In this document: positions 16,248 through 48,071 of the stretch, piece after piece
How the letters are laid out: every line of letters begins with the position of its first letter
How positions within the stretch are numbered: position 1 is the stretch's first letter
Translations under genes and position numbers: made by a program
From: a virus
Length of the DNA: 64,000 nt
IMG/VR virus record: IMGVR_UViG_3300006734_000008
Coordinates: 1-64,000 of that record
Direction: 5' to 3' (one strand)
Notes under the pieces: generated by a model
What the model was told of the DNA's origin: nothing
Seen by the model: the letters and a program-made list of their open reading frames with translations, nothing else
Database searches by the model: none

Positions 16248-16260
16248 TTGTTTTCTTTAG

Positions 16261-16330
16261 TTGCGGAGGTGGGAGTCGCACCCACGGAGGCTGGCTTATG
16301 AGACCAGCTGGAATACTCATTCTCCCCGCA
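16261..16330 (-). tRNA. degenerate tRNA-like gene, anticodon CAT (Met/Ile2-type), shortened D-arm
   Basis: Minus-strand read: 7-bp acceptor stem TGCGGGG/CTCCGCA (one G-T), anticodon stem CTGGT/GCCAG with 7-nt loop CTCATAA, T-arm GTGGG-TGCGACT-CCCAC, discriminator A; D-arm only about 4 bp with 4-nt loop. Confidence 0.4.
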
Positions 16331-27044: not shown

Positions 27045-27434
27045 ATGAAAGCATTTTTCTTCACCCTACTATTGTCCTGCTTTACATGGACTAGCTTTTC
27101 TCAAATCGTACAATACGATTATGATAGTACTGCATTTTGTTTTAACTCTAATGTTAAATCATCATGTGTAGATACTTGTTCACCAGCACAACCAGCTTCA
27201 ATAACTCTGAGTGTGGACTTAGACAGTTTTACACTATATTTTAATGGTGAACAACGAGTGTACACATTAGATAAGATGTTCAGCTTTAAAGATGAATATT
27301 TTATTCTAAAAGGTACAGCCCCAAATGATACACAGGTGAAACTTTTCATTTCACCGTACAAGTGTGTATTAGCCAACAATGAATGTAACTTACAATTCAA
27401 GTTTATAGCTTGTAAAGAAGAAGATGATGAGTGA
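27045..27434 (+). CDS. secreted Cys-containing protein
   Basis: Signal peptide MKAFFFTLLLSCFTWTSFS; 129 aa. Confidence 0.4.
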   Translation: MKAFFFTLLLSCFTWTSFSQIVQYDYDSTAFCFNSNVKSSCVDTCSPAQPASITLSVDLDSFTLYFNGEQRVYTLDKMFSFKDEYFILKGTAPNDTQVKLFISPYKCVLANNECNLQFKFIACKEEDDE

Positions 27435-28332
27435 TAAACCTATATTGATGCACAATTATCCTGATGGTACATCTTATTTCAGAACTGATGATGCTAAAAA
27501 ATCAGAGATAGTATGGCGCATCCAAAACTATGAACAACTGTGGCAATTAGCACAGTATGTTGATGCTTTTAGACAATATGATTCAATGAATCGTAGAAAG
27601 CTACAGGTAACTCTTCCTCGTCTTATTGATGCACAGGCTGACTCAAGATTTGGGCGGTATTCTTATAGTCTCAAGATAGTTCTTGATTTTCTTAATTCTT
27701 TAGATGTAGATATTTATGTTATTTATCATCCACACAATCCTCAAGCAGTGGAAATGGGTTTGAATAATGTCGCAATCTTAAAGAATTATACTTTCATTGA
27801 GAAAGTACTTCAAGACTTAGCAATAAATGTATATCATTTACCTGCAGAGTGGGTACATGACCATTATATTACAACTGTAAATGAAAGACTGTATCCTCTT
27901 GTTCATCTTTTAGCTGCTGATGCAGGAGGTTATAAGCCTCTTATGGATACAGTTAAAAGGCTAAGATGGGGAGGTAAGGTTCACTCTGCGTCTAAATCTC
28001 GTGTAGATGGTAAGTTACATCAAATTCTTTCAGTCAATGACTTTAAGGGTAAGGATGTACTCATTGTTGATGATATTTGCGTATATGGTGGAACCTTTAA
28101 AGGTTTAGCCAAATTATTACGAGAGAGAAATGCAGGAAGATTATTCCTGGCTGTCAGTCATATGACTGTACAAAACTTAGGTAAAGATTCAGTAGTACGT
28201 TACTTTGATAGAGTATACACCACCAATAGCACATATGATTACTATATGCATGTTGTTGATGAGGATGGTACTATTGAGGAAAAGCCTGATAATTTGAATG
28301 TAATTGAACTTTTTAACCCTGATAACAGATGA
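27424..28332 (+). CDS. prs: ribose-phosphate pyrophosphokinase-like type-I phosphoribosyltransferase
   Basis: PRPP-binding loop DVLIVDDICVYGGTFKG; two-domain 302-aa size; N-terminal DG-containing segment. Confidence 0.55.
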   Translation: MMSDKPILMHNYPDGTSYFRTDDAKKSEIVWRIQNYEQLWQLAQYVDAFRQYDSMNRRKLQVTLPRLIDAQADSRFGRYSYSLKIVLDFLNSLDVDIYVIYHPHNPQAVEMGLNNVAILKNYTFIEKVLQDLAINVYHLPAEWVHDHYITTVNERLYPLVHLLAADAGGYKPLMDTVKRLRWGGKVHSASKSRVDGKLHQILSVNDFKGKDVLIVDDICVYGGTFKGLAKLLRERNAGRLFLAVSHMTVQNLGKDSVVRYFDRVYTTNSTYDYYMHVVDEDGTIEEKPDNLNVIELFNPDNR

Positions 28333-29807
28333 ATCCATTTTTAGGAACTGATGGGTACAAAACAGGTCACATGCCTATGTATCCAGAGGGAACAAGTTTG
28401 GTTGTATCCAACTTTACACCTCGAAGCAATAAGTATGCACCAAATGGAATAGACAGCGTAGTTGTCTTTGGACTCCAAATGGTCATGCATCAAATACACG
28501 ATGGTTTTCAACGTGATTTCTTCAATCAACCCAAAAGAGCAGTCTGTAATGAGATTAAAGACGAGTATTCCATGTACCTAGGTATGGATTATGATGTCTC
28601 TCATATCGAAGCCCTGTGGGATTTAGGTTTTCTCCCTATTGAAATGAAAGCCTTGGAAGAAGGAACGTTGTGTCCCATTGGTGTACCCGTGTTAACCATT
28701 AAGAATACTTATGAAGAGTTCTTCTGGTTGACAAACTTCCTGGAGACTTTAATCTCCAACTTGTTGTGGAAACCTATTACATCCGCAACAATTGCCCTTG
28801 AGTTCAAGAAAGTACTCACTAAATGGGCACTCAAGACCGATGCTGATAATGTCGGCTTTGTGGATTTTCAAGGACATGATTTCTCTATGAGAGGCATGGA
28901 CTCCCTCGAAGCTGTCATTAGTTCAGGATTAGGTCATGCAACAAGCTTCTTAGGTTCTGATAGTTTGCCAACAATACATGGCGCCAGAAAATACTATCGT
29001 GAACCTGATGGAGTGATTTACTCAGTAAATGCTACCGAGCACTCAGTGATGTGTGCTGGTGGTCATGAAACTGAAATTGACACATTTCGTAGGCTTATGT
29101 CTATCTTTCCTAAAGGTATTCTCTCCATTGTATCTGATACATGGGACTTGTGGAAAGTGTTGACAGCTTATTTGCCTGAATTACATGATGAAATTCTTGC
29201 AAGAGATGGTAAAATTGTCATTCGTCCTGATTCTGGTAATCCTGCTGACATCCTTTGTGGAACTGTAATGGATGACCGAGAAGACATGAAAACTTTACCT
29301 GAACACAAAGGTGTAATTGAACTCCTTTGGGATGAATTTGGTGGAACTGTAAATGAGCAGGGATACAAAGTTCTAAATCCTAAGATTGGAGCAATCTATG
29401 GAGACTCTATCACCTTGGAAAGAGCTGAAGAAATATGTCAACGGTTGGAACAGAAAGGCTTTGCAAGTACTAACGTGGTACTGGGCATAGGAAGCTTTAC
29501 TTACCAGTTCAACACTCGTGACACTTTTGGTTTTGCTATGAAAGCAACTTATGTAGAAATTACAGATGCCGAGGGAAAAGTAATTGGTAGAGAAATCTAC
29601 AAAGACCCTATTACTGATGACGGAACTAAAAAGAGTGCCAAGGGACTACTTCAAGTTGTGAAAACCGCTGATGGTCTTGTATTAAAAGACCAAGTAAGTT
29701 GGTTAGAAGAAAGAGAGGGGGAACTCCAAACAATCTATGAGGATGGACTATTCTTCAACCCAACAACTTTAACCCAAATCAGGGAGCGTGTCGCAGCCTT
29801 GGTTTAA
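28329..29807 (+). CDS. nadV: nicotinamide phosphoribosyltransferase (NadV/NAMPT family)
   Basis: N-terminal GTDGYKTGH motif, about 490 aa, type II PRTase-like architecture; ATGA overlap with prs-like gene. Confidence 0.65.
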   Translation: MNPFLGTDGYKTGHMPMYPEGTSLVVSNFTPRSNKYAPNGIDSVVVFGLQMVMHQIHDGFQRDFFNQPKRAVCNEIKDEYSMYLGMDYDVSHIEALWDLGFLPIEMKALEEGTLCPIGVPVLTIKNTYEEFFWLTNFLETLISNLLWKPITSATIALEFKKVLTKWALKTDADNVGFVDFQGHDFSMRGMDSLEAVISSGLGHATSFLGSDSLPTIHGARKYYREPDGVIYSVNATEHSVMCAGGHETEIDTFRRLMSIFPKGILSIVSDTWDLWKVLTAYLPELHDEILARDGKIVIRPDSGNPADILCGTVMDDREDMKTLPEHKGVIELLWDEFGGTVNEQGYKVLNPKIGAIYGDSITLERAEEICQRLEQKGFASTNVVLGIGSFTYQFNTRDTFGFAMKATYVEITDAEGKVIGREIYKDPITDDGTKKSAKGLLQVVKTADGLVLKDQVSWLEEREGELQTIYEDGLFFNPTTLTQIRERVAALV

Positions 29808-30326: not shown

Positions 30327-30400
30327 ACACTCATAGCTCAATTGGATAGAGCGACAGCCTTCTAAGCTGTAGGTTATAGGTTCGACTCCTATTGGGTGTA
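30327..30400 (+). tRNA. tRNA-Arg (anticodon TCT)
   Basis: Acceptor ACACTCA/TGGGTGT, D-arm GCTC-AATTGGATA-GAGC, anticodon arm ACAGC-CTTCTAA-GCTGT, T-arm ATAGG-TTCGACT-CCTAT, discriminator A. Confidence 0.8.
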
Positions 30401-30492
30401 CAACACTAGGTCGCACAGGCGTAGGGATTTAATAATTATAGATGATAAATATAGTCGCCTACAGAGAGTTGAAATACTTTCTCTAGTGGTAT

Positions 30493-30578
30493 GCAGGAGT
30501 GGTGGAATTGGTAGACACGCAGGACTTAAAATCCTGTGAGCAGTAATGTTCGTGAGGGTTCGACTCCCTCCTCCTGCA
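30493..30578 (+). tRNA. tRNA-Leu (anticodon TAA), type II with long variable arm
   Basis: Acceptor GCAGGAG/CTCCTGC, anticodon arm CAGGA-CTTAAAA-TCCTG, long variable arm, T-arm GAGGG-TTCGACT-CCCTC. Confidence 0.8.
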
Positions 30579-30592
30579 CTAAAAAAACAATA

Positions 30593-31299: not shown

Positions 31300-32607
31300 A
31301 TGCTCAAGAAAAGCGACCAGTTTAACCCTAACTATTTAGCTAAGGTTGTTAAACTAAAGGGATTACAGAAACATTCTAATGCAGATAGGCTACAAACCTG
31401 TCTCATAGACTTTCAAAATGTAATCACTGACATGAAAGCAAAAGATGGAGATATCTATGTATACTTTCCTGTGGAGTGTCAGATTAATAAAGACTTTCTT
31501 TCTAAGACTAATAGTTTTAGAGACAAGACTCTCAATACAGAACCAGATGAAGGTGGGTTCTTTGAAAAGCATTGTAGAGTCAAAGCCATGAGCCTCAGAG
31601 GTGAGAGGAGTATGGGATATATTGTACCAGCTAATCATGTATTTGAATGGGCTGGTGTCAATAAAAATCCATCAGATTTTGTTAATACTGAGTTTGATAC
31701 TATCAATGAGAAGTTGCTTCTCAAGAAATACATCAAAAAGGTCAACAAACATGATGGACCACCTAACAAAAAAGGCAAAAAACCAGCCCTGTCAAGACTG
31801 ATTGAGGGACAAGTACATTTACATGTAGATACTGATAATCTCAGAAAATACATGTCTAATATCAAGCCATCAGATACTATCTCTATTACCTATAAGACAC
31901 ATGGAACCTCGTGGTGGGTCAGTAATGTGCTAGTAAAGAAGAAGTTAAATTGGATTGAGAAAGTACTCCTTAATCTTGGTGTTAAGATACAAACAGAAGA
32001 GTATGATTTGGTCTATGGTTCAAGACGAGTAGTTAAGAATAAACAGTTCGAAGACCCAAAGGGACAAGACCACTTCTATGGCTATGATTTGTGGAAAGAC
32101 ATCAAAGATGAGATTGGATACAAAATTCCTAAAGGCTTTACTCTCTATGGAGAGATGATAGGCTATGATAAGGAAGGAAATTTCATTCAAAAACCATTTG
32201 ATTATGGTTGCAGACCAGGAGAACACAAACTTGAAGTGTATAGAATAACTTATACTAATCCAAATGGAGTAGTTATGGAGTTGTCTACACCACAGATAGT
32301 TGAGTTCTGTTTGAGAAACAGATTGAATCCATCTTACAGGTATTTTACAGGTAAAGCGAGAGATTTATATCCTCAACTGCATACTGGTGAGTATTGGCAT
32401 GAAAAATTCATCTCTAATTTAGAGGATGACTATGCTAATGGTGAAAGATGTTTTAGGTGTAACAACAAGGTTCCTGCTGAAGGTATATGTCTCAGAGTTG
32501 AAAGACTCTATGAATATGAGATTTATAAGTTGAAAAGCTTTGAATTTCTTGAATTTGAGACTAAACAACTTGATGCAGGAGAATCTAATATTGAGGATAC
32601 CGCATGA
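31300..32607 (+). CDS. putative ATP-dependent RNA ligase (covalent nucleotidyltransferase, Rnl5-like KxHG type)
   Basis: Motif I-like ITYKTHGTS, motif IV-like EGICLRVE, motif V-like YKLKS, about 190-aa N-terminal extension; neighbours are Pnk kinase and phosphoesterase. Confidence 0.45.
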   Translation: MLKKSDQFNPNYLAKVVKLKGLQKHSNADRLQTCLIDFQNVITDMKAKDGDIYVYFPVECQINKDFLSKTNSFRDKTLNTEPDEGGFFEKHCRVKAMSLRGERSMGYIVPANHVFEWAGVNKNPSDFVNTEFDTINEKLLLKKYIKKVNKHDGPPNKKGKKPALSRLIEGQVHLHVDTDNLRKYMSNIKPSDTISITYKTHGTSWWVSNVLVKKKLNWIEKVLLNLGVKIQTEEYDLVYGSRRVVKNKQFEDPKGQDHFYGYDLWKDIKDEIGYKIPKGFTLYGEMIGYDKEGNFIQKPFDYGCRPGEHKLEVYRITYTNPNGVVMELSTPQIVEFCLRNRLNPSYRYFTGKARDLYPQLHTGEYWHEKFISNLEDDYANGERCFRCNNKVPAEGICLRVERLYEYEIYKLKSFEFLEFETKQLDAGESNIEDTA

Positions 32608-32999
32608 AACGTGATGACCTATTAGAGAAATTGCGTGAGATGCAAAATTTACCTACAAGAGATGAACTGTTTCGTTGGATACAGTCTCTTCCAAAAGATA
32701 AACATCTTGGTACACCTGAACAATTCAAAGTTGGTGATATATTTATGCATCCAATCTTCAATCATCCATATGTTCTTCTAAAGAAGACAAATGATGGTTA
32801 TCTTTGTACACTTATGACTTCAGATGGTGAGTTTGCAGAGGTACTTACTCAATGTAAATCTAGGTTCTTTAGCGATTCTTTTATTGTGAAGAATCTCTTT
32901 GAACGACAAAATATCTCTCAAGATGCCTTCATGGGTATCTATGATAATAACAAACATCTGAAAGAAGTTTTAAAACAGTTACAAACCGTAATGTCATAA
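32604..32999 (+). CDS. hypothetical protein
   Basis: 131-aa ORF between ligase and kinase, overlapping stops/starts. Confidence 0.4.
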   Translation: MKRDDLLEKLREMQNLPTRDELFRWIQSLPKDKHLGTPEQFKVGDIFMHPIFNHPYVLLKKTNDGYLCTLMTSDGEFAEVLTQCKSRFFSDSFIVKNLFERQNISQDAFMGIYDNNKHLKEVLKQLQTVMS

Positions 33000-33472
33000 T
33001 GCCTAAGTTAATCATACTTATTGGACCTTCGGGCTCAGGTAAATCTACCTGGGCTCATGAGGCCCATATAAAAGACCCTAACAATGTTGTTATTGTCAAT
33101 AGGGACAAGATTCGCGAGTTACTCTTTGGTTATCTTGAAGATAACATTAAAGAGTATTACCTTCGACATGACTTTCCTGCAAGAGAGAAAGAAGTTACAA
33201 TATATGAAAATATATTGATACACAGCTCTCTTAATCTAAACAAAACAGTCATTGTTGATGCTACACATCTAAAACTCAAATACCTTAAAAGATATGATGT
33301 CTTGAAAGATAAGGGAATTGATGTGGAATACAAGTATTTCGATGCTGATATGGGTACTCTATTAGAGCGTCAGACCCTACGTATTCGTAAGGTAGGCAAA
33401 GAGATACTTGAAAGACAATTGGATATGTATCACAAGCTACAAAACAATCCTCATGCGATTAAATACAAATGA
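32999..33472 (+). CDS. pnk: polynucleotide 5'-kinase (T4 Pnk kinase-domain-like P-loop kinase)
   Basis: IILIGPSGSGKSTWAHE Walker A and downstream VNRD, closely paralleling the T4 Pnk kinase domain N-terminus. Confidence 0.55.
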   Translation: MPKLIILIGPSGSGKSTWAHEAHIKDPNNVVIVNRDKIRELLFGYLEDNIKEYYLRHDFPAREKEVTIYENILIHSSLNLNKTVIVDATHLKLKYLKRYDVLKDKGIDVEYKYFDADMGTLLERQTLRIRKVGKEILERQLDMYHKLQNNPHAIKYK

Positions 33473-34124
33473 TGGTAATATCTGGTTTACATCAGATACT
33501 CATTTTAACCATACTAATATTGTAAAAGGTATCAGTAAGTGGAAAAAGGGTGGTATGCGTGATATGAACGAAAATCTAGAGTATATGAATACTCTTCTTC
33601 TAGAGGAAATCAATAAAAGAGTTCAACCCAATGACACTCTTATTCATTTAGGTGACTTTGCTTTTGGTGATAAGACTCAGATTCCTCATTTTCTTGACCG
33701 AATTCTATGTAAAAATGTGCATTTAGTATTTGGAAACCATGACCATTGGATTAGAGCTCACTATAAACATCTTTTCAAATCAGTTCATGAATTACTTGAA
33801 TTGACAATTGTAGAGGCTCAACCAATTGTTAATGGTCGTCAACAAAAAGCTAAGAAGTATAATTTCGTACTTTGTCACTATCCACTCTTTGTGTGGAATG
33901 GTCATATGAAAGGATGGATACATCTTCATGGTCATTGCCACAATTCTATGTATCACACTACACCAGACTATTACAAACGTAAAGCTATGGATGTAGGAGT
34001 TGATACTATTTTCAACCAATTTGGATATTATGGTCCTATTAGCTATTCTCATATTATGGAACTACTTCGTAATAAAGAATTAGTCGAAGTAGACCACCAT
34101 GATGCCAATACAAATGTGTATTGA
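33456..34124 (+). CDS. calcineurin-like metallophosphoesterase (2',3'/3'-phosphatase candidate)
   Basis: Motifs DTHFNH, GDFAFGD, GNHDHW, H..GH.H; start chosen at ATG 33456 overlapping pnk stop. Confidence 0.55.
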   Translation, partial: RLNTNDGNIWFTSDTHFNHTNIVKGISKWKKGGMRDMNENLEYMNTLLLEEINKRVQPNDTLIHLGDFAFGDKTQIPHFLDRILCKNVHLVFGNHDHWIRAHYKHLFKSVHELLELTIVEAQPIVNGRQQKAKKYNFVLCHYPLFVWNGHMKGWIHLHGHCHNSMYHTTPDYYKRKAMDVGVDTIFNQFGYYGPISYSHIMELLRNKELVEVDHHDANTNVY

Positions 34125-35053: not shown

Positions 35054-35461
35054 TTGTCAAGAGTATTCAATACCTTTCGAATGAAACTCATAATTGCAGG
35101 TAGCAGAGACTTTACAGACTATGCTCATCTTAAGCATATATTGTTAAATAACTACGATATTGCTGAGATAAGTGAGATTGTCTCAGGCACTGCAAGAGGA
35201 GCTGATAGATTGGGGGAAAAGTTTGCCAAAGAGCATTCTATTCCCCTTCGTCAGTTTCCTGCAGACTGGGATAAACATGGTAAATCTGCAGGATATATCC
35301 GTAACAAACAAATGGCTGACTATGCTGATGCATTGGTAGTATTTTGGGACGGACGTTCAAAAGGAACAAAACACATGATAAATCTGGCTAACTTAGCTGG
35401 ATTAAATGTGAAAATCTTCTTATACGGCTTTGAAGCCAGTTTACAGAAGAAACTATTTTAG
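35054..35461 (+). CDS. SLOG-superfamily (DUF2493/YspA-like) Rossmann-fold protein
   Basis: IIAGSRDF...VSGTARGADRLGE...VVFWDG pattern typical of DprA/LOG-like SLOG domains common in phages. Confidence 0.45.
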   Translation: MSRVFNTFRMKLIIAGSRDFTDYAHLKHILLNNYDIAEISEIVSGTARGADRLGEKFAKEHSIPLRQFPADWDKHGKSAGYIRNKQMADYADALVVFWDGRSKGTKHMINLANLAGLNVKIFLYGFEASLQKKLF

Positions 35462-35868
35462 GGCCTGACTGGAATTGACAGGTATCTGAGAGTATATGAA
35501 CATGCAGTCAGATTGATTTACTCTGACTTGAATCTCGTAAATTAACAAATAACTGGAAACAGTTTATCTAACACTACTGTAGAAGAGTTCATCTCAACTA
35601 TGGTAGTTGCAGAGCGTGAAGTAGCAGTAGCGTAATGCAGCAGGTGTTATCCCTACCTAGGAACAGAAAAGGGGTAAAATTTAACTCGAAAAAGGATAAG
35701 GAGAGTATAAATTTGGAGTGACAGTATCCTTGAAAGACCCGTAGGTTTAGCTGTTATCACTACCCTGGTGGAGGTTGAATTCCAGATTCAGCCCTAATTT
35801 TTAAGCATGTATAATTTGTATATTTGATGTTACGCTGGACGGGGGTTCGACTCCCCTCAGGTCCACTA
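35461..35868 (+). ncRNA. ssrA: tmRNA (ssrA-like transfer-messenger RNA), one-piece, with tag reading frame GCA GAG CGT GAA GTA GCA GTA GCG TAA (AEREVAVA*) at 35609-35635
   Basis: 5' end GGGCCTGACTGGAATTGACAGG parallels E. coli GGGGCUGAUUCUGGAUUCGACGGG; 3' end CTGGACGGGGGTTCGACTCCCCTCAGGTCCACTA gives T-arm GGGGG-TTCGACT-CCCCT and acceptor 3' strand pairing the 5' GGGCCTG; resume codon GCA preceded by TAGTT (E. coli has TAGTC GCA); tag ends VAVA then TAA. Confidence 0.7.
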
Positions 35869-35880
35869 AAAACTTATGAA

Positions 35881-36414
35881 ATGGCTAGTTTAAATCGAGG
35901 GCTTAGAAAGCTCAAAAGAGTTGTCAAACAGGTTACAAGTAAAAGACAAGATGTCTTAAAACCTTATGAACAACAACTAACTGATATTCTTGGGCACGGC
36001 TGGGCTGTTGTCAGAGATTACGGGAATGGTTATACCTTTAAGTTAAACTATGGGTATGATTACTCAAGTAGGCAGACTTTCAGATTACTCACTCTTAGTG
36101 GTAAAGTAATTTCAGAATTTACCATGAGACAAATGCCCGGATGTTGTGGAATAGTTGTCTCTACAGGGTCTACTGTAGACCCAAAGTACAGAGGTAAAGG
36201 TATTGGTACTATTCTTAATGAACTTCGTAAAGACATAGCGAGAGCTAATGGATTTGGATGTTTAATGTGTACCACTATCCTCAGTAATACACCACAACAA
36301 AAAATTTTGGAACGTAATGAATGGGAACTCGTCAATACGTTCAATAACCCTAGAACAGGGAATGATTTAGGAGTTCATATTTACAATCTCAATGAACAGG
36401 ACCGTAACACATGA
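35881..36414 (+). CDS. GNAT-fold acyltransferase-like protein
   Basis: GCCGIVVSTGSTVDPKYRGKGIGTILNEL resembles GNAT motif A (R-x-x-G-x-G); real start taken after tmRNA 3' end (MASLNRG). Confidence 0.45.
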   Translation: MASLNRGLRKLKRVVKQVTSKRQDVLKPYEQQLTDILGHGWAVVRDYGNGYTFKLNYGYDYSSRQTFRLLTLSGKVISEFTMRQMPGCCGIVVSTGSTVDPKYRGKGIGTILNELRKDIARANGFGCLMCTTILSNTPQQKILERNEWELVNTFNNPRTGNDLGVHIYNLNEQDRNT

Positions 36415-39906: not shown

Positions 39907-40430
39907 TGAGCAGAGATAGTAGAAGATTTAGGGCAGCTATACTTCCTTATTTCAGAGAAGAGTATCATCCACAAATCCAAGTTGAAATAACAACAAACAG
40001 ATTCAGACTAGGAACAACAGGTTTGGATGTGTTAATAGGGTTTAATATAACTACTCTTGCAGGTTCATGTGGTACAAAGTTCATTTCTCAATATGCTATG
40101 AACACAGAAAGATTGAACATTATGTTAGACTCTAGAAGAACTACAAAAAGTCTTCTAGAACGTATCTTTTCTGAATTCTATAAGCCTATGGAGGATATAT
40201 GGTCACTGAAAAGGGCAACTGGGCAATTTCTCATGTCAAATAATGAGATAAAAGCTCCAGAATTTGCAGCAGATGTAAGGAAAATTGCAAATAAGATTCA
40301 GGAGAGTTACAATCCTAATTCAAAAAGGAAAGTGACTATCTATGTTATTGATTTAGGTATATGCAAGAAAAGGATAGAGTCCAAAAAGAAGCATTACAAG
40401 CAGTCACGTCGCAAGGCGGTAGTGGCTTAG
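39906..40430 (+). CDS. hypothetical protein
   Basis: 174-aa ORF. Confidence 0.4.
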   Translation: MSRDSRRFRAAILPYFREEYHPQIQVEITTNRFRLGTTGLDVLIGFNITTLAGSCGTKFISQYAMNTERLNIMLDSRRTTKSLLERIFSEFYKPMEDIWSLKRATGQFLMSNNEIKAPEFAADVRKIANKIQESYNPNSKRKVTIYVIDLGICKKRIESKKKHYKQSRRKAVVA

Positions 40431-41466
40431 TAGCTATGGCTACAGGAACTGGTAAAACAAAAGTAGGAATTGACTACGTTGAATTGCTAAAGAACAAGGG
40501 AAGAGGAGAATCCTTTGGGTTGTACCCACAGAGAAACTCCGAGATGAAGGGATTAAACAAGAATTTGTTAAGTGGGGTTCTGATTTCAGCAAAGTCCATC
40601 TCGTATGTTATGCCAGTCTCAACAAACTAGAGGGTTATGAATTTGACCTAGTAGTTCTTGATGAATGTCATAGAATTACTGAAAACAATTATCAATTTTT
40701 TCAACAGAACAAGGTAGGAAATACCATTGGTTTGTCTGCAACACCACCTCATGAAGAGGTTAAAAGGTCATTGTTAGAGTCTATTGGTTTAAAAGTGGTT
40801 TACCATTTACCATTAGATGAAGCAGTTGCTTTAGGAATAGCAGCACCATATAAAATCAAGATTATAGAGTCTTTCTTAGATGATAAAGAGAAGTATATCT
40901 TAGCTGGTAATAAGAAGAATCGTTTTTATACGACCGAAATGCAGCAGTATCAATACTTGTCTAATCAAATAAGGAGAATAATGTTCTCAGGTAAGGATGT
41001 ACCTAAGTACTTATACCTTAACAGAATGAGATTTATCTATAATTTGAGAAGTAAGCATAATGTAGCCACTAGGTTATTGGCTTCACTTCCAAAAGAAGAC
41101 CGAATCCTTATATTCCATAAATCAATTCCTAGAATTGATGAGTTGTGTGCTCACACTTTTCATTCTAAGACTAATGATGAGGCATATAAGAAGTTCATAG
41201 AGGGCAAAATAAGCCGTTTAGGAGTAGCTGATAAGGTCAATGAAGGTACTAACATACCTAATGTCGATAAAGCCCTTGTAGTGCAATTAAATAGCCAACC
41301 AAGAGAACTTATCCAACGTCTTGGACGTATCGTAAGATGGAGAGAGGGACATCAAGCAGAATTTTATATTATGCAGGTGTTACAAACTCAGGATGAGAAA
41401 TGGGTAGCTAAAGCATTGCAGGACTTAGATGGACCTGTTGAATACATAAATGCAAAAAACATTTAG
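40361..41466 (+). CDS. SF2 DExH-box helicase, interrupted by a -1 frame change near 40483-40520
   Basis: Motif I MATGTGKTK in frame of 40361; motifs Ia ILWVVPT, II DECH, III SAT, VI QRLGRIVRW in the frame of 40732; both frames are open across 40483-40630. Confidence 0.55.
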
Positions 41467-42122
41467 TGGAACAACTGAACGTTTATGTTGTAGGAGGAGC
41501 TTTAAGCTATATAGGTGTCTTAAATGGCTTAGATATTAAGCCTAGAGATACTAAAGTACTAACTGAGGCAGATTTAGTTCTGTTTACTGGTGGTGCTGAT
41601 GTGTCACCTAAGTACTATGGTGAAAAGTTTCACCCAACAACATATGCAAACCCAAAACGTGATGAATTAGAGGCAAGAGTCTTTGCTATGGCATCAGCTA
41701 TGAAAATACCTATGTTGGGTATTTGTAGAGGTTCGCAGTTTCTTACAGTCATGAATGGTGGAAAACTAGTGCAAAATGTGTCCAGTCACGCAATGGTTGG
41801 AAAGCACTCAGTTAGATTCAATAAGAAGAATAATGGCGTTAAAATTGCCATGACTTCTACACATCACCAAATGATGTATCCATATAATCTACCAAAGGAT
41901 GAATATGAATTAGTTGCTTGGGCAGAACCAAGCCGTAGCTCCTTGTATGAGCGTGGTGATGGAGAAACCTATACTGTTCAAAATGAGCCTGAGATAGTTT
42001 ACTATCCAAAAAGTAACTCTTTGGCTATTCAAGGACATCCAGAAAGACAACTCAGTGATGGAATTGTCATGGGAGTAATGGGTTACATCATCAACAAGTA
42101 TCTATTTGATGAAATTCTTTAA
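41466..42122 (+). CDS. class-I glutamine amidotransferase-like / peptidase C26 (gamma-glutamyl hydrolase-type) protein
   Basis: Catalytic triad context GICRGSQFL (Cys) and IQGHPE (His-Glu). Confidence 0.55.
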   Translation: MEQLNVYVVGGALSYIGVLNGLDIKPRDTKVLTEADLVLFTGGADVSPKYYGEKFHPTTYANPKRDELEARVFAMASAMKIPMLGICRGSQFLTVMNGGKLVQNVSSHAMVGKHSVRFNKKNNGVKIAMTSTHHQMMYPYNLPKDEYELVAWAEPSRSSLYERGDGETYTVQNEPEIVYYPKSNSLAIQGHPERQLSDGIVMGVMGYIINKYLFDEIL

Positions 42123-42855
42123 TAAGATTCGTATGGGCAAAGCTGGGAATTTTAGAGTAGAAGGTGGTGTATTAAATGAAAAGGGAAAGTTTGATTCAAA
42201 TCCTGCAACACAAGCGTGTTTTTCTTTTATAAAAAGACATTGTGATGATAGGAAGGAAATCCTTTTTCATACTAAGGGGGGAGAGACTCCAGAGATAACT
42301 GAACAATTAGTTAAAATCATCAATTTAATCACACCATGTGAGATAATTGAACCAGATTTTAACAAACTTAAGCCTGAGTATAAACTTAACGATAACTGGG
42401 GAAAACATCTTGATACGCTTTATAACAATCAAATAGGAATAATCACTCAAAAGTCAACAGTATGGATTAAGTACAAGCTTTTACTTAGTTATAAACATAA
42501 CTTGATTTTATTGAATTTCTTTCGAAGTCTCTGGTATATGCCTAGAGATACTGGAAAGAGTCGTAGACACTTGTTTCAGAATGCTAAGTTTTTTAAAGGA
42601 TTGTTTAAATTCGATGTTGAAAAGCATGACCCTATGAGTTTTTTACTAACTCTATGGGATAATTGTTTACACAAAAAGCGAGTATTCACTACTGAGGAAT
42701 TTAATCACTCTAATGTTACTGCAAAATCAATTAAAACTGGTCTTACAGTAGAGGAATTTCTTAGAGAAGCTAATGATGAGAGGTATAAGCAATCAACTGA
42801 TGGATGGTCTAGTGACCATAAAATAACAACACAAGCCAAAATCATATGCCACTGA
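42106..42855 (+). CDS. hypothetical protein
   Basis: 249-aa ORF. Confidence 0.4.
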   Translation: MMKFFNKIRMGKAGNFRVEGGVLNEKGKFDSNPATQACFSFIKRHCDDRKEILFHTKGGETPEITEQLVKIINLITPCEIIEPDFNKLKPEYKLNDNWGKHLDTLYNNQIGIITQKSTVWIKYKLLLSYKHNLILLNFFRSLWYMPRDTGKSRRHLFQNAKFFKGLFKFDVEKHDPMSFLLTLWDNCLHKKRVFTTEEFNHSNVTAKSIKTGLTVEEFLREANDERYKQSTDGWSSDHKITTQAKIICH

Positions 42856-43052
42856 TTAGTAAAAAGGTTGAGACTGTTGATGAGTTTTTTATCAGACAAT
42901 CTCAAGAAAGAAGAAAGGAATATGACGCTGCAAAGGAACAAGCAATGCTTGATATGCAGGATGAAGACCTTCGCGATGAATTTGAGGAACAAATGTTCCT
43001 TGAACGGTACAATAATTTTGTTTATTAGTAAAAAAAGGAGTACATTTGTAAA

Positions 43053-43538
43053 ATGGATAATGATAAATTACTTCAATTGTGCGATGTTCTTGGAGTGCTT
43101 AGGCAACTTGAGAATAGAGGATATGTTGAAAGAGGAGATGGAGAAGTAATTTTCACAAAGAGAGCAGAAGAAGCTCTCGCAGAGGTGAATGCTAAAAAGT
43201 TAACACCTAAGTTGAAAGAAGTTGTTGAATGGATAGATGAATACAGAAGTCTATTCCCTTCAGGAGTAAGAAGTGGAGGTTATCTAGTCAAGGGTTCTAA
43301 ACAAGCTTGCATCAAAAAGATGCGTCAGTTTTTGAAAGAATACCCTGAATATGATAAAGACCTTATACTCGAAGCAACACACCGCTATGTAGAAAGAAAA
43401 GCCAGGGAAAACTACAAGTATATGCAGTTGGCACACTATTTCATTTTAAAAGATGGAGCATCCAATTTGGCTGCAGAGTGTGAACAAATTGCAGATGGTT
43501 TTGTAGAGCCTGAAAACCCATTTGAACAAACAATGTAG
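43053..43538 (+). CDS. hypothetical protein
   Basis: 161-aa ORF. Confidence 0.4.
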   Translation: MDNDKLLQLCDVLGVLRQLENRGYVERGDGEVIFTKRAEEALAEVNAKKLTPKLKEVVEWIDEYRSLFPSGVRSGGYLVKGSKQACIKKMRQFLKEYPEYDKDLILEATHRYVERKARENYKYMQLAHYFILKDGASNLAAECEQIADGFVEPENPFEQTM

Positions 43539-44637
43539 TATGTTTAAGGATACGTTAAGTAAAATTAGGCAATCTGCAGAAAATTTGGACAAGGGTCTTA
43601 TTAACAATATCCCATTTGCTAGCTTTCCAAAATTAGCTAGTCATGTTCCAGGAATTGTTAAAGGCTTATACTATATAGTCACGGCATCTAGTGGTATTGG
43701 GAAAACCCAGTTTACCAAGAGATTGTTCGTATTGGAACCTTACATGTTTGTTAAGGAATGTAAATCTGATGTTAAACTCAAGATTATGTACTTCGCTTTA
43801 GAAGAAAGTAAAGAAGAGTTTATGTTAGGTCTCATTAGTAACAGACTTGCTATGGTTTATAACATCCATGTTAGTGTAATTGAGTTACAATCATTCACTG
43901 ACAGACTCGACCAAAACATTATTGATAAGATTGAAGAGTGCCAAGAGTACTTTGAAGACTTTGAAAAGTATGTTGAGGTTATAGATACGGTGTATAATCC
44001 AACAGGTTTGTATAAACATGTGAGAGAATATGCTGATAGAAATGGTACGCATCACTTTAGAGATGTAGAGTACGGTGGTAAAGTTCATAAGATATATGAC
44101 TACTATGAACCTGATGACCCAAATGAGTTTGTAATTGTAATTACAGACCATGTTAGTCTCCTACAAGAGGAGAAAGATAGGGAAACTGGTCATATGATGA
44201 ACAAACACCAGACTATTAGCAAATGGTCTGCAGACTATTGCAGAAAACAAATATCCAAGAATTTTGGATATACAGTTGTTAATGTACAACAGCAAGCTGC
44301 TGAGAAAGAGAAGCAGGAATTTTACAGAGGTAACAGCGTAGAAGCTAAACTCGAACCATCTTTAGATGGACTAGCTGACAACAAGTTAACTCAGCGTGAT
44401 GCTTTTGTAGTATTGGCACTGTACGCACCTGATAGGTACGAAATTAAGAGACACCTAAAGTATGATACTTCTATATTAGGAGATAATTATAGGGCTCTTA
44501 AAGTGTTAAAAAACAGATTGGGTAGACCAAACCTCAAGGCTGGTTTATTTTTCGATGGAAAAGTAAATGAGTTCATGGAGTTACCACCACCCAATTCTAG
44601 TGAAATCGAAAATTTTTATAACAGAGAAAAAAGTTAA
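43522..44637 (+). CDS. DnaB-like replicative DNA helicase (RecA-fold domain)
   Basis: Walker A TASSGIGKTQF, Walker B-like VIVITDHVSLL, about 370 aa. Confidence 0.5.
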   Translation: MNKQCSMFKDTLSKIRQSAENLDKGLINNIPFASFPKLASHVPGIVKGLYYIVTASSGIGKTQFTKRLFVLEPYMFVKECKSDVKLKIMYFALEESKEEFMLGLISNRLAMVYNIHVSVIELQSFTDRLDQNIIDKIEECQEYFEDFEKYVEVIDTVYNPTGLYKHVREYADRNGTHHFRDVEYGGKVHKIYDYYEPDDPNEFVIVITDHVSLLQEEKDRETGHMMNKHQTISKWSADYCRKQISKNFGYTVVNVQQQAAEKEKQEFYRGNSVEAKLEPSLDGLADNKLTQRDAFVVLALYAPDRYEIKRHLKYDTSILGDNYRALKVLKNRLGRPNLKAGLFFDGKVNEFMELPPPNSSEIENFYNREKS

Positions 44638-45230
44638 TGACAGAATTAGTGAAGATGGAAGACCATAAGGACTTCTTGCAAACGTTGATTGATAGCAAGA
44701 AACTACCTGGTCATGTGAAAAGTGTAGAAGATGCATTTACAATTGCTCAAATGGGAAAGGAATTAGGATTCGCTGCAATGCAGTCATTCCATTATATCAT
44801 TCCTATCCAAGGAAAGCTGAGTTTATCAGCTAAGGGTATTGGTGCATTATTACGTAAAGGAGGAGTAGAATTTGTCACTACTGAAGATGGAGTGTATGTT
44901 TACAGTGATGGGACTACGAGTGAGTATCCCAAAGAAGGTGATGACAAACCTGTAGATAGGAGAACAACTATTGTTTTCTATCGCAATGACAAGGAAGAGA
45001 CTTGTTCTTTTACTTGGAAAGAGGCTACAGGAATGGGACTTACCACCAAGGACAATTGGAAAAAGATGCCAAAGTTCATGTTATGGGCTCGTTGTTTATC
45101 AAAGGGTGCTAACAGAGTTGGGGCAGATTTTCTATTAGGTCTGTACTGCACAGAAGAATTGTTCGACCATATGGAAGGTGTCCAAGCGGTTCGAACTGAA
45201 GAAGGAGAAATTATTGAAATTAAAGACTAA
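44637..45230 (+). CDS. hypothetical protein, possible recombination/annealing factor
   Basis: 197 aa, located between helicase and SSB; weak resemblance only. Confidence 0.25.
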   Translation: MTELVKMEDHKDFLQTLIDSKKLPGHVKSVEDAFTIAQMGKELGFAAMQSFHYIIPIQGKLSLSAKGIGALLRKGGVEFVTTEDGVYVYSDGTTSEYPKEGDDKPVDRRTTIVFYRNDKEETCSFTWKEATGMGLTTKDNWKKMPKFMLWARCLSKGANRVGADFLLGLYCTEELFDHMEGVQAVRTEEGEIIEIKD

Positions 45231-45234
45231 GACT

Positions 45235-45954
45235 ATGAATTGGGATAATATAGAATTCAGACAAGAAAGAAAGCTTTACACAGGACCGTGTAGAGTAAAA
45301 GTGGTAGCGGTTAATCCAACTAAAGATGAGCTTTGTGCTCTTCTAGGATTAGACCCAGAGAGAACTAATGACCCTACTTATGATGGTAGGATTGATGTTT
45401 ATGTTAAAAATGAAGAGCATAACATCACAACTAAGATTGCATTCTTTGTAGATGGTGATGATGTACCACCTGCAGGAAACGGTAAGATTAAGTATATCAA
45501 CCAGTATGGTAGAACTGCTTATCTTGCTAATCCAGATGACACATCTGAGTTAGATTGGTTCTCTAGAACAGGTTTGAGACCTGCCAAGAATGGAGAAGAG
45601 GAGCTTTATGCTTTCTTCATTAATTGGATTAATATTGACGCAGAGAAGGGTAAATTTGTCCTTCCTTACGAAGATATTGCCAATGGAAATATTGATGTTT
45701 TCACAGGAGCTTTAGAACGATTTGGTGACAAAGAGTTCGTGGGACTGTTAGGAGTAACTAAAGGTAAATACCAAGCAATGTATGCTAAGGACTTTGGTCG
45801 CACTTTTAACAAGAAATTCAATAAAGTTCAATGGAAAAATCATGATTTCACCACTGATTTCCAAGAGTATGTGAAACCTGCAGAACCTGACACAATGGAA
45901 GGTGAAGTAGAATTTGCTGCTAGTGGAGATGGAGGTGATGAATTACCATTCTAA
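45235..45954 (+). CDS. ssb: single-stranded DNA-binding protein
   Basis: C-terminal acidic tail GDGGDELPF matching canonical SSB D-D-D-I-P-F tip; start at ATG 45235 after upstream stop. Confidence 0.5.
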   Translation: MNWDNIEFRQERKLYTGPCRVKVVAVNPTKDELCALLGLDPERTNDPTYDGRIDVYVKNEEHNITTKIAFFVDGDDVPPAGNGKIKYINQYGRTAYLANPDDTSELDWFSRTGLRPAKNGEEELYAFFINWINIDAEKGKFVLPYEDIANGNIDVFTGALERFGDKEFVGLLGVTKGKYQAMYAKDFGRTFNKKFNKVQWKNHDFTTDFQEYVKPAEPDTMEGEVEFAASGDGGDELPF

Positions 45955-46007
45955 TCTGAACAGTAAGTACTTAATCAGGGACTCTCAAAAGGAGTCCCTT
46001 TTTTTGT

Positions 46008-46973
46008 ATGAAAGACCAAATACTTAAGCGAATAACCCAGGAGGATATCTATGCCAGATACTTTCCTGATGAGATAGCACTCCAGACAAGGTATTGTAAT
46101 CCTACTAGAATTGATAAAAATCCAGATTGTTATTTTACATATATCAATGACAGATTGATGTTTGTAGATTTTGGGGGAGACCCTACACATATGGATTGTT
46201 TTAGGTTCATTCAAGAATACTTTGATATATCATTCTATGAGGTATTAACTATCATCTCTAAGGACTTTGGTCTAGGCTTACATAAAATTGAATCATTAGA
46301 TGAAGAAATTGTAACGCCTCAGACAAGAAAAAAACTTGTCCTGAACAAACCTACGCAAGTAGAGAAAGAGACAGTAATCAAAGTAGTGAATCAACCCTTT
46401 CAACGGGCTGATTTGGATTATTGGGCTCAATTTGGGATTAGCCTAGAGACATTAGTTAATTACAATGTCAGGGCTGTCTATCGCGCTTGGATTAATGGAG
46501 ACTTTTACCATGAATACAAAGCTTATGACCCAATGTATAGATACAAAGAACAAGATAAGTTCAAACTGTACAGACCATTGGCAGATAAACGTTATAAGTG
46601 GAGAACTAATATGTCAGGTGGCGTATTAGAAGGGTGGTCACAACTTCCTGATAAGGGCAATCTTCTGATTGTCACTAAGTCTAGGAAAGATGTGATGACT
46701 TTACATGAGTTAGGCTATGCTGCTGTAGCAGTTAGGTCTGAATCATCTCCTGTATCTGAAAATGCTGCAGCATTATTGAATCAGAGATTTGGTAAAATCA
46801 TTCTTTGGTTTGATAATGATAAAGCAGGTATTAAGTATTCAGACAAACTAAGTGATAAATATGGTTGGGAGACCATTAGTTTTCCAACTGGATTTCCAAA
46901 AGACCCGTCAGACTATGTTAAAGACTACGGGCAAACTGAACTTTTAAATTTCATTAAGAACATTTATGAATAA
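46008..46973 (+). CDS. DNA primase (TOPRIM domain)
   Basis: TOPRIM signature LLIVTKSRKD...E...ILWFDNDKAG; N-terminal Cys/His cluster. Confidence 0.55.
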   Translation: MKDQILKRITQEDIYARYFPDEIALQTRYCNPTRIDKNPDCYFTYINDRLMFVDFGGDPTHMDCFRFIQEYFDISFYEVLTIISKDFGLGLHKIESLDEEIVTPQTRKKLVLNKPTQVEKETVIKVVNQPFQRADLDYWAQFGISLETLVNYNVRAVYRAWINGDFYHEYKAYDPMYRYKEQDKFKLYRPLADKRYKWRTNMSGGVLEGWSQLPDKGNLLIVTKSRKDVMTLHELGYAAVAVRSESSPVSENAAALLNQRFGKIILWFDNDKAGIKYSDKLSDKYGWETISFPTGFPKDPSDYVKDYGQTELLNFIKNIYE

Positions 46974-47721
46974 TATATTCACATTAGGAGCAGACCCAGA
47001 AGCATTTCTGTATAATACAGACCTGGAGATGTATGTTCCTTCCGAGTTGTATTTTCATGGCACTAAGGATGAGCCAGAAGATTTAGCACCAGGCTATGCC
47101 GTATTATGTGATAATCTAATGGTTGAATTTAACATCCCGCCAGCAAGTACAAAGTTGGATTTTGTAGCTAATTTGAACCAAGCTATTGAATTTATCCAAC
47201 AAAAACTACCAGAAGAGGTAGAAATCAGGTTCAACAACTCGGCAGTGTTCAGTGATAAAGCATTGCAATTCCCAACAGCTAATATGTTTGGATGTGCTCC
47301 ACAAGAGAACATGTACAACATTATGCTGTTATGTCCCGATGACTTCCCACCAAACGTGAGATTTGCAGGTGGACATATTCATGTAGGAATGAAGATTAAT
47401 AATCTCAAAAAGATGATTAAGCTCTTTGACCTGCATATTGGATTGCCTTTGGCTGCTGCTGAACCTCGTACAGAACTCTCTAGGAGAGATATCTATGGTG
47501 CTCCAGGCACTTATAGAACTACCTCTTATGGTTTTGAGTATCGCACCCCTTCATGTGAATGGTTACAAAGTAACGACAAGATTGAGTGGGTATGGGATAG
47601 TGTGGAGAGGATTGTCGAAGACTACCACAATGAAGGAATATTTTTACCTGATGACAATGAAGTCTTTCAGGCATTTGAACAGCCAGAATTGGCTAGGGAA
47701 TTAATTGCAGATTACGCATGA
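46966..47721 (+). CDS. GS-like carboxylate-amine ligase (amidoligase-type) protein
   Basis: E-x-E-like NLMVEFN, GGHIHVG (H-x-H), GFEYRTP (E-x-R) as in glutamine-synthetase/GCS2-like amidoligases. Confidence 0.4.
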   Translation: MNNIFTLGADPEAFLYNTDLEMYVPSELYFHGTKDEPEDLAPGYAVLCDNLMVEFNIPPASTKLDFVANLNQAIEFIQQKLPEEVEIRFNNSAVFSDKALQFPTANMFGCAPQENMYNIMLLCPDDFPPNVRFAGGHIHVGMKINNLKKMIKLFDLHIGLPLAAAEPRTELSRRDIYGAPGTYRTTSYGFEYRTPSCEWLQSNDKIEWVWDSVERIVEDYHNEGIFLPDDNEVFQAFEQPELARELIADYA

Positions 47722-48071
47722 GAATTGCTGTATATGGAACACTGCGAAGAGGTTGGGGAAACAATCGCTTATTAGCAGACTCAAAGTTTGTTGACGCAGG
47801 AAAAACAAAGGAGAAGTATACTATGTATGCTAGTGGGATACCTTTTGTATCATCACATAAGCCTACATCTAATATTCATGTAGAAGTATTCGATGTTCCT
47901 GAAGAAGATGTACCAAGAGTAGATGGGTTAGAGGGACACCCAAATTGGTATCAAAGAAGACCCATACAAGTAATACTTGATTCTGGAGAAGAAACAACTG
48001 CAGAATTGTATTTTATGGATGGAGAAAGAGGTCTCCCTGTTGTAGAAAGTGGAAACTATGAAGACGCCTAA
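47718..48071 (+). CDS. gamma-glutamyl cyclotransferase-like (AIG2/GGCT fold) protein
   Basis: N-terminal IAVYGTLRRGWGNN matches YGSL-x-x-G-x-x-N GGCT signature; 117 aa. Confidence 0.55.
   Translation: MRIAVYGTLRRGWGNNRLLADSKFVDAGKTKEKYTMYASGIPFVSSHKPTSNIHVEVFDVPEEDVPRVDGLEGHPNWYQRRPIQVILDSGEETTAELYFMDGERGLPVVESGNYEDA

Follow-up and report, generated by a model that had tools for sequence, protein, structure and literature searches.

We examined a 64,000-nucleotide (nt) stretch of viral DNA, positions 1 to 64,000 of IMG/VR record IMGVR_UViG_3300006734_000008 (hereafter the window), and found that it carries a complete gene for transfer-messenger RNA (tmRNA, ssrA). To judge from its sequence, the gene is probably a functional, phage-encoded tmRNA of the standard one-piece form and the Bacteroidota type, and the phage that carries it is crAss-like, with a genome of about 101.6 kb. 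All coordinates below are those of the window unless another record is named, gene positions are window coordinates minus 35460, and other contigs and loci are referred to by L numbers. When the whole window was scanned with cmscan against Rfam 15, the tmRNA model RF00023 matched exactly the following element:

35461-35868, plus strand: tmRNA (ssrA), standard one-piece form, intron-less allele, 408 nt (RF00023)

The score was 78.1 bits, compared with a gathering score of 47, with an E value of 1.3e-28 and untruncated coverage of model positions 1-374 of 374. The two-piece permuted model RF04321 had no match in the window, leaving the standard model, in normal order, as the sole tmRNA match, and the group I intron model RF00028 gave no match in the window either, the T-loop being uninterrupted. 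The initial annotation of this DNA had proposed a complete phage tmRNA and had named the RF00023 search as a check; the full-length match bears out the proposal, and the gene ends proved right to the base. The same 408-nt sequence was present, letter for letter, in the independent metagenome contigs L003, L004, L006, L007 and L009, and identical gene copies occurred in at least five independent metagenome assemblies.

The tRNA-like domain and the P2 helix are composed of the following elements:

35461-35467, plus strand: acceptor 5' strand GGGCCUG, with G3 in a G.U pair; G35461 is the final base of the upstream TAG
35858-35868, plus strand: acceptor 3' strand CAGGUCC, discriminator A35865, then CUA, assigned from the sequence
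35841-35857, plus strand: T-arm GGGGG/UUCGACU/CCCCU, stem at gene positions 381-385 and 393-397, 7-nt loop
35479-35505, plus strand: P2 helix 5' strand, gene positions 19-45
35805-35837, plus strand: P2 helix 3' strand, gene positions 345-377, holding the conserved UAAGCAUGUA

In the acceptor, gene positions 1-7 pair with 398-404, including a G3.U402 pair, and A405 is the discriminator. The tRNA-Ala-like ends claimed in the initial annotation (GGGCCUG/CAGGUCC, G3.U, discriminator A and T-arm) are therefore present, as is the G-U pair at acceptor position 3:70 that it had singled out for checking, and the predicted alanine identity elements are in place. The 3' end reads ACUA: CCA is not encoded, as is also the case in many viral relatives. 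Within P2, gene positions 19-21 pair with 375-377, 22-24 with 371-373, 26 with 369, 30-40 with 355-365, and 41-45 with 345-349.

This fold was assessed by covariation in an alignment of 23 "mini" tmRNAs, each reduced to its 5' 104 nt and 3' 72 nt, comprising the window tmRNA, 17 tmRNAs from the genome collection, of which 16 belong to Bacteroidota-assigned records, and 5 viral tmRNAs. For the tested structure, which was derived from one member of this alignment, standard pairs filled 79.1% of the cells, compared with 38-44% when the 3' partners were slid by 1-3 columns, and the covariation score was 0.409 versus 0.08-0.12 after sliding; all 500 shuffles fell short on each of these measures. 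The acceptor was 100% paired, in 23 of 23 sequences, and its G3.U pair was invariant (23/23). The T stem was likewise 100% paired, with compensatory changes, and P2 showed such changes too, in its top helix (94.8% paired) as well as in its base helix (85.5%). The middle of P2, which is rich in AU and GU pairs, was poorly conserved, with 35-59% pairing.

The messenger part of the RNA is laid out as follows:

35506-35543, plus strand: H-type pseudoknot PK1; stem S1 pairs gene positions 46-52 (AGUCAGA) with 62-68 (UCUGACU), and stem S2, also on the plus strand, pairs 55-61 (GAUUUAC) with 77-83 (GUAAAUU)
35544-35554, plus strand: single-stranded spacer AACAAAUAACU, 11 nt, separating PK1 from the resume codon; positions -5 and -4 are U and A
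35555-35635, plus strand: tag reading frame with GGA resume codon at 35555-35557, 26 codons (GNSLSNTTVEEFISTMVVAEREVAVA) and UAA at 35633-35635
35606-35641, plus strand: helix-5-like hairpin covering the last part of the tag frame; the stop codon lies in its internal loop
35609-35611, plus strand: GCA, the resume codon of the initial annotation, more likely codon 19 of the tag

PK1 obtained a pseudoknot-finder score of 35, compared with 17.4 ± 7.3 for shuffled sequences, of which 1 in 300 reached 35. In the alignment of 23 tmRNAs, its S1 was 75% and its S2 69% paired, and changes on both sides were seen at all 14 of 14 pairs. The GGA codon occupies gene positions 95-97, and an in-frame UAA at gene positions 83-85, at the end of PK1, shuts the frame directly upstream; the other two frames over the tag region contain 4 and 2 stops. 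The spacing from PK1 to GGA is 9-11 nt, compared with 10-15 nt in Bacteroidota tmRNAs in which PK1 was correctly found. When the 5' regions were aligned with MAFFT, the window's AUAACU-GGA shared columns with AUAAAU-GGC and its equivalents in Bacteroidota tmRNAs. In Bacteroidota tmRNAs with the same 5' signature, GGGnnUGACUGGnnUUGACAGG, the gene finder ARAGORN placed tags at about gene positions 94-102, nearly all of them beginning with Gly (examples are GNYNVAMAA, GETNYALAA and GENRFALAA), and the window tag starts with GN. The hairpin at 35606-35641 has a minimum free energy of -12.6 kcal/mol and a z score of -1.98, with 8 of 200 shuffles as good.

Long frames beginning at the same place were also found in viral relatives. 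L085 (= L094; IMGVR_UViG_3300020185_000024, 90,666 bp), which shares the rare GGGCCUG/CAGGUCC acceptor, has a tag of 23 codons, GKKSNKVVSINKKRANTRMSVAA, starting from UCUAAAC-GGA. In L133/L129, 44 codons are open from the same position and end in VEAEQELELAA, and in L204 the tag is GNTSTFTYEDALAFVGADFAVAA, 23 codons from the PK1-proximal codon. A family of IMG/VR tmRNAs with tags ending in EEVAVAA is open for 35-38 codons from the aligned GGN in 24 of 24 unique variants, for example GKNNSRVVALGANAQIEANMNKVFSLLREEVAVAA. The EEVAVAA-type tmRNAs, at L017-L093 (among them L017 7685-8006 and L024 5604-5962, both on the minus strand), lie on contigs that are often about 100-115 kb long, frequently beside a tRNA-Met gene.

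The initial annotation had instead placed the resume codon at GCA and read the tag as the 8 residues AEREVAVA. Resumption at GCA (35609-35611) in the same tmRNA, adding AEREVAVA only, is an unlikely alternative in our judgement, although it is not without attractions. The UAGUU ahead of GCA, correctly noted at the time together with the frame end VAVA and its UAA (35633-35635), resembles the UAGUC-GCA of Escherichia coli and conforms, like the context of GGA, to the U(-5)A(-4) rule. A very relaxed or acceptor-mutated ARAGORN run returns an AEREVAVA tag, though with wrong gene boundaries, and the program likewise starts the tags of the IMG/VR relatives at internal Ala or Asp codons. In addition, codon-position diversity in the IMG/VR family reveals coding constraint over codons 12-35 and is unclear for codons 1-11, so the case for translation of the N-terminal part of the long tag comes only from its position, its alignment and the openness of the frame. 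On the other side, GCA (gene positions 149-151) lies 65 nt beyond PK1, as against 10-15 nt in correctly mapped relatives, it is base-paired inside the 35606-35641 hairpin, and the homologous resume column is occupied by GGA. Upstream of GCA the same frame runs on for eighteen more open codons and stops precisely at PK1; the other two frames are interrupted, and the relatives have like long frames. The initial annotation had itself required a valid pseudoknot ahead of the tag frame, and PK1 provides one for the GGA start and not for the GCA start. We therefore read the tag as 26 residues from GGA, with AEREVAVA as its C-terminal end only. GCA and GGA lie in one frame, so the C terminus ...AEREVAVA is the same for both starts.

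This shared end, EVAVA, is hydrophobic and Ala-terminal, with Val as the penultimate residue, and the departure from ALAA that had been remarked on earlier is real. The tags of tmRNAs typically end in (L/V/M)AA, and those of the viral relatives end in VAVAA, ELAA or SVAA. The codons used for the EVAVA end are GUA GCA GUA GCG in the window and GUU GCU GUA GCA GCC in the IMG/VR family (REEVAVAA). The sharing of EVAVA through different synonymous codons points to a constraint that acts on the peptide rather than on the RNA.

Between the hairpin at the tag end and the 3' strand of P2, two features were delimited:

35642-35804, plus strand: region where pseudoknots PK2-PK4 would be expected
35773-35793, plus strand: hairpin GGUUGAAUU-CCA-GAUUCAGCC, flanked by GGUGGA and CUA (GGUGGA...AGCCCUA)

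PK2-PK4 are common in tmRNAs, though not universal. The hairpin motif at 35773-35793 is the only piece of this region that is recognisably common to L085, L133 and L209, and its stem and loop sequences differ among them, the L085 version being GGUUAAC-UUCG-GUUAGCC. A search with a PK4-motif pattern returned 44 loci, about the number estimated by chance, and tmRNA features were present only in L129/L133, L131 and L085. We also observed that 35773-35802, which comprises the hairpin and CUAAUUUUUA, looks terminator-like in a simple scan despite lying inside the tmRNA; this is probably incidental, and it could attenuate read-through into the tRNA-like 3' part.

Besides the context of GCA and the unclear signal at codons 1-11, several observations weigh against a functional tmRNA with a 26-residue tag. 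The Rfam posterior probabilities are low over about 35615-35790, and the best pseudoknot score in the PK2-PK4 region, 28, equals the shuffle mean of 28.3 ± 3.2, although candidate stems exist; the set of pseudoknots to be checked according to the initial annotation was thus recovered for PK1 and not for PK2-PK4. ARAGORN, also proposed there as a check, left the gene uncalled, reporting three tRNAs only and no tmRNA in the window at default settings, and only mis-bounded pseudo-calls when relaxed down to ps70. The tag ends without the canonical Ala-Ala, and degradation of tagged proteins is not assured. All copies in the lineage of the window phage are identical, so selection within the lineage cannot be read from them. 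Finally, the closest phages by DNA polymerase (L013-L016, 52-59% identity) have no tmRNA within about 10 kb of polA.

The behavior of ARAGORN was traced by altering the sequence. Single mutations in the T stem or resume codon, at the tag end or at the CCA site still gave no call, and C4G/G401C was the sole tested change that produced one, which was mis-bounded. The miss is a failure of the detection tool rather than of a defining biological feature. In the long-tag relatives from IMG/VR, ARAGORN returned only the C-terminal part of the tag, corresponding to the last 18-24 residues. Standard phage annotation uses ARAGORN for tmRNAs, for example in Pharokka. The program overlooks the window gene and truncates the tags of related tmRNAs, so current counts of phage tmRNAs, and the tag lengths given for them, are probably too low.

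The unusual tag end and the indistinct central region might also be expected of a tRNA-like decoy or regulator, that is, a charged RNA that binds SmpB or ribosomes and so interferes with or senses host trans-translation while its message stays unproductive. Such a role finds a precedent in the tmRNA-like RNA of mycobacteriophage DS6A (PMC11915505), and besides the missing AA end and the shuffle-level PK2-PK4 score, it would accord with our failure to find SmpB by tblastn within the 64-kb window, using an E. coli SmpB query. We nevertheless regard it as highly improbable. A decoy needs no PK1 at the right spacing, no frame kept open in divergent relatives, no stop codon in a helix-5-like hairpin and no peptide motif kept through synonymous changes. 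The DS6A RNA, moreover, is without a tag frame, whereas the window RNA is full length on the Rfam model. A tmRNA whose tag is translated from GGA thus remains our preferred reading.

We then considered the phage that carries the gene. The window holds genes for a major head protein, a portal protein and the large terminase (TerL). Among 50,697 phage records, every head-protein homologue belonged to a crAss-like phage, with Flavobacterium (FpV4 group, 39.6% identity), Bacteroides, Cellulophaga and the like as hosts, and the best matches of the DNA polymerase were crAss-like phages at 37-45% identity. The host of the window phage is probably in Bacteroidota. The same phage occurs in several independent metagenome assemblies, in which two contigs measure 101,740 and 102,410 bp, a difference of 670 bp. 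In the literature searched, no crAss-like phage was described as carrying a tmRNA; the reference crAss-like genomes were not scanned, and no first is claimed.

A blastn search with the tmRNA against the 50,697 phage records (INPHARED) gave no match, and a megablast search with 24 kb around it matched only at the tRNA-Arg gene. The exact 3'-end pattern had no match in IMG/VR, and the 3'-end pattern matches that were obtained were mostly 3' fragments of tmRNAs and unrelated GC-rich tmRNAs. A metagenome scan for the GGGCC-type 5' end recovered only L085, which was already known. The 5' signature GGGnnUGACUGGnnUUGACAGG was present in 34 records of a species-representative genome collection, about 26 of which are named as Bacteroidota; 15 of the carriers are Saprospiraceae, and the others include Lewinellaceae, Chitinophagales, Cytophagales, Raineya, Bacteroidia and unclassified "Bacteroidetes" metagenome-assembled genomes (MAGs). 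It also occurred in 77 IMG/VR stretches, most of them with tmRNAs, including the long-tag family and some two-piece forms. Nucleotide alignment of the window tmRNA to the carriers of this signature was confined to the tRNA-like ends.

These comparisons bear on whether the gene could be a passenger or relic, namely a host ssrA copy acquired by recombination or the remnant of a temperate-phage attachment site, in either case without a function in infection. Integration into tmRNA genes is common, IMG/VR contains many 3' tmRNA fragments, and the phages closest by polymerase lack the gene near polA, as does the IMG/VR polymerase relative L001, in which no tmRNA was found within about 10 kb of polA. 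We give this explanation very little credence all the same, since the window gene is full length rather than a 3' fragment and is far from bacterial tmRNA sequences outside the tRNA-like ends. Its 26-codon tag is unmatched in Bacteroidota-assigned records, in which 21 tags have 8-10 amino acids and one, on the MAG contig L097, has 24. The rare C4-G69 acceptor pair is common to the window tmRNA and the viral tmRNAs L085, L133, L204 and L209. The L085 phage, whose helicase is only 42% identical to that of the window, has the same gene type and, as described below, the same intron site, which argues for long retention in phages; a tmRNA of this type has thus probably been kept in a phage lineage for a long time. 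The carrier is also a crAss-like phage, and no integrase was noticed among the annotated open reading frames (ORFs), in an annotation that was not exhaustive.

A sibling genome offered a direct view of variation in the gene. In L002 (ENA ERZ27265261 k141_2878621), the tmRNA is interrupted by a 670-nt group I intron (RF00028, 103 bits), which contains an ORF for a 137-amino-acid LAGLIDADG homing endonuclease on the antisense strand. The features concerned are these:

L002 10768-11437: group I intron, inserted between window positions 35847 and 35848, past the second T-loop nucleotide
35851: lone single-nucleotide polymorphism (SNP), 4 nt from the insertion site; C in the window, A in the intron allele
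L085, about 11049 to 9809, minus strand: tmRNA gene, about 1,241 bp

The inferred junction in L002 reads GGGGGUU, intron ... G, CGAAUCCCC, with U at -1 and a terminal (omega) G, and splicing would restore a UUCGAAU loop. Over the 10,767 nt upstream and 8,944 nt downstream that were compared, the intron and the SNP listed above are the only differences between the window and L002. Two near-identical genomes set apart by an intron and one adjacent base amount to a clean natural record of an intron on the move in a phage RNA gene. Contig ERZ27265257 k141_691530, of 101,740 bp (L005 end, 10767; L012 start), ends exactly at the intron site and has a 141-nt terminal overlap. The overlap suggests that the genome is circular or terminally redundant, at about 101.6 kb, and the break at the intron site suggests an assembly-graph bubble caused by a population mixed for the intron.

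L085 carries a homologous intron at the same site, with 62.7% identity, and the two endonucleases are 44.9% identical. Its gene consists of a first exon of 532 nt, an intron of 688 nt and a second exon of 21 nt, and would yield a mature RNA of about 553 nt whose pseudoknot region contains a large insertion. The maximum gene length quoted in PMC11915505 is 1,152 bp, which the L085 gene exceeds if its boundaries are right. Elsewhere, L039 2766-2989 (minus strand) and L069 1524-1739 (plus strand) comprise EEVAVAA-type 5' parts followed by group I introns (RF00028, 96 and 94 bits). Because L039 and L069 also have introns, the invasion of viral tmRNA genes by introns looks recurrent. Introns at T-loop position 3 of tmRNAs have been reported only from the class Bacteroidia (PMC11915505), which fits a Bacteroidota host for the window phage.

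In the window, the tmRNA gene has the following neighbors:

30327-30579: tRNA-Arg(UCU) and tRNA-Leu(UAA), about 5 kb upstream of the tmRNA (ARAGORN)
31300-34124: RNA ligase, polynucleotide kinase and phosphoesterase (PHROGs, E values 4e-56, 5e-31 and 2e-45)
35081-35461, plus strand: YAcAr/SLOG-family gene, 126 amino acids, whose TAG stop overlaps tmRNA base 1 (Pfam PF10686, E value 5.5e-15)
35881-36414, plus strand: GNAT acetyltransferase-like gene, 177 amino acids, beginning 12 nt past the tmRNA (Pfam PF00583, E value 3.2e-6)

The setting described in the initial annotation, with a SLOG gene before and a GNAT gene after the tmRNA, two tRNAs about 5 kb away and an RNA-repair cassette, was reproduced in full. 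Promoter and terminator scans did no better than shuffles, using a method that does not cover Bacteroidota promoters. The remaining tRNA called by ARAGORN, tRNA-Met(CAU) at 16260-16330 on the minus strand, falls below the gathering threshold of the Rfam tRNA model and may be divergent or doubtful.

All the predicted elements for tRNA-like charging and for messenger function are present in the gene, and a working model can be outlined from them. Since the spacers to the SLOG and GNAT genes are 0 nt and 12 nt, the tmRNA would be co-transcribed with its neighbors in a rightward operon. Host RNase P would make the 5' cut; the 3' end would be trimmed and then receive CCA from a CCA-adding enzyme, an addition that is needed because the gene encodes CUA. 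Host alanyl-tRNA synthetase (AlaRS) would charge the RNA with alanine through G3.U70 and A73, and host SmpB and EF-Tu would carry the charged RNA to ribosomes stalled on broken or non-stop mRNAs. The lack of an encoded CCA and of flanking spacers implies dependence on host processing, AlaRS and SmpB. Translation would switch to the tmRNA, appending Ala and GNSLSNTTVEEFISTMVVAEREVAVA before stopping at UAA, and the ribosome would be freed. The phage might in this way hold up ribosome-rescue capacity while mRNAs are cut during infection, a benefit with which the RNA ligase/kinase/phosphoesterase cassette and the tRNAs of the phage would be in keeping. The long tag ending in EVAVA would probably still act as a hydrophobic C-terminal degron. 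The altered proteolytic targeting, the rescue during host shut-off and the countering of anticodon nucleases suggested in the initial annotation are speculative, and its functional claims go too far.

Other parts of the window yielded three observations apart from the tmRNA. At 27424-29807, a phosphoribosyltransferase-domain gene lies beside a nicotinamide/nicotinate phosphoribosyltransferase gene (NAMPT_N and NAPRTase); other phages carry NAD-salvage pairs of this kind. A cluster at 41466-52758 includes GATase/Peptidase_C26 (seen on identical contigs), phiEco32-like COOH-NH2 ligase, ATP-grasp, glutamine-amidotransferase-like and amidoligase genes, and this amide-bond-forming set may be a nucleotide- or peptide-modification module. 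The helicase at 40361-41466 appears as two ORFs (89 and 244 amino acids), and a stop-free stretch from about 40483 aligns continuously with the L085 helicase (42% identity over 313 amino acids).

Taken further, the material allows a broader scenario, which we put forward as tentative and, as a whole, rather doubtful. Phages of about 100 kb that infect Bacteroidota, crAss-like and others, would long have kept a tmRNA lineage of their own, in which the 9-residue tag of the host has grown to 23-44 residues with an ..E-E/R-E-V-A-V-A end; the tag would be a phage-specific signal rather than a simple degron, and the gene a hotspot for a group I intron moving between phage and Bacteroidia tmRNA genes. 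If this were true, an adaptor of phage or host origin might, for example, recognise the tag, and rescued nascent chains would then be spared, sequestered or selectively destroyed. To our knowledge, no phage tmRNA has been shown to tag proteins during infection, and the class is recognised and functionally unexplained. A long tag whose end motif is common to many viral tmRNAs offers a concrete peptide for work on stability and binding partners, and the tmRNA finding lends further support to the view that this uncultured crAss-like phage has its host in Bacteroidota.

How the window tmRNA relates to known systems can be seen first among bacteria. It shares with the one-piece tmRNAs of Bacteroidota (Saprospiraceae, Lewinellaceae, Chitinophagales and Cytophagales MAGs) the signature GGGnnUGACUGGnnUUGACAGG, the architecture and position of PK1, the AUAAnU-GGN context with its Gly resume codon, a tag start of GN or GE, and UAAGCAUGUA in the 3' strand of P2. 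It differs from them in its tag, which has 26 residues and ends in VAVA where theirs have 8-10 and end in A(L/M)AA, and in acceptor pair 4:69, which is C-G instead of G-C. The central PK2-PK4 region is unalignable between the two, and the window gene is set in a phage operon without spacers.

Among phages, tmRNA genes are documented in 402 of 18,146 genomes (2.3%), including the two-piece forms of marine myophages (PMC9004378); huge phages encode tmRNA together with SmpB (PMC7162821), and the curated tmRNA database includes phage entries (PMC11915505). The novelty rating of the initial annotation was too high in view of these reports. The gene adds one more to the phage tmRNAs already known and leaves unchanged what a tmRNA is. 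It agrees with phage tmRNAs in general in being a full ssrA gene, in a lytic-type phage, beside tRNA genes, and with a proposed role in sustaining or redirecting trans-translation. The tmRNAs of Melnitz and the pelagimyophages are two-piece, permuted and of the alphaproteobacterial type, whereas that of the window is one-piece and of the Bacteroidota type.

Closer likenesses are found in the EEVAVAA family from IMG/VR (L017, L024 and L036), which has the same 5' signature, no encoded CCA and a long frame at GGN after PK1. The family tags follow the form G(K/N)(N/T/S)...(R/G)EEVAVAA, whereas the window tag ends in EREVAVA, is 9 residues shorter and is without the final Ala. The family RNAs are 320-360 nt long with a GGGGG acceptor start, and only the tRNA-like ends align (63-80% over 60-100 nt); the carrier phages are at best very distant from the window phage (25% TerL identity). 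With the intron-form tmRNAs of Bacteroidia, the introns of L002 and L085 share insertion between UU and CGAAU, U at -1, the omega G and a LAGLIDADG gene after the catalytic core. The differences are that the window copy is intron-less, the endonuclease gene is antisense, and the carrier is a phage, not a bacterium. The minimal tmRNA-like RNA of DS6A, which is tag-less and inhibits endogenous tmRNA in E. coli (PMC11915505), resembles the window RNA in being phage-encoded and in having a tRNA-like domain able to engage host trans-translation. The DS6A RNA is an inhibitor with no tag frame, whereas the window RNA possesses, as predicted from its sequence, every element for tagging.

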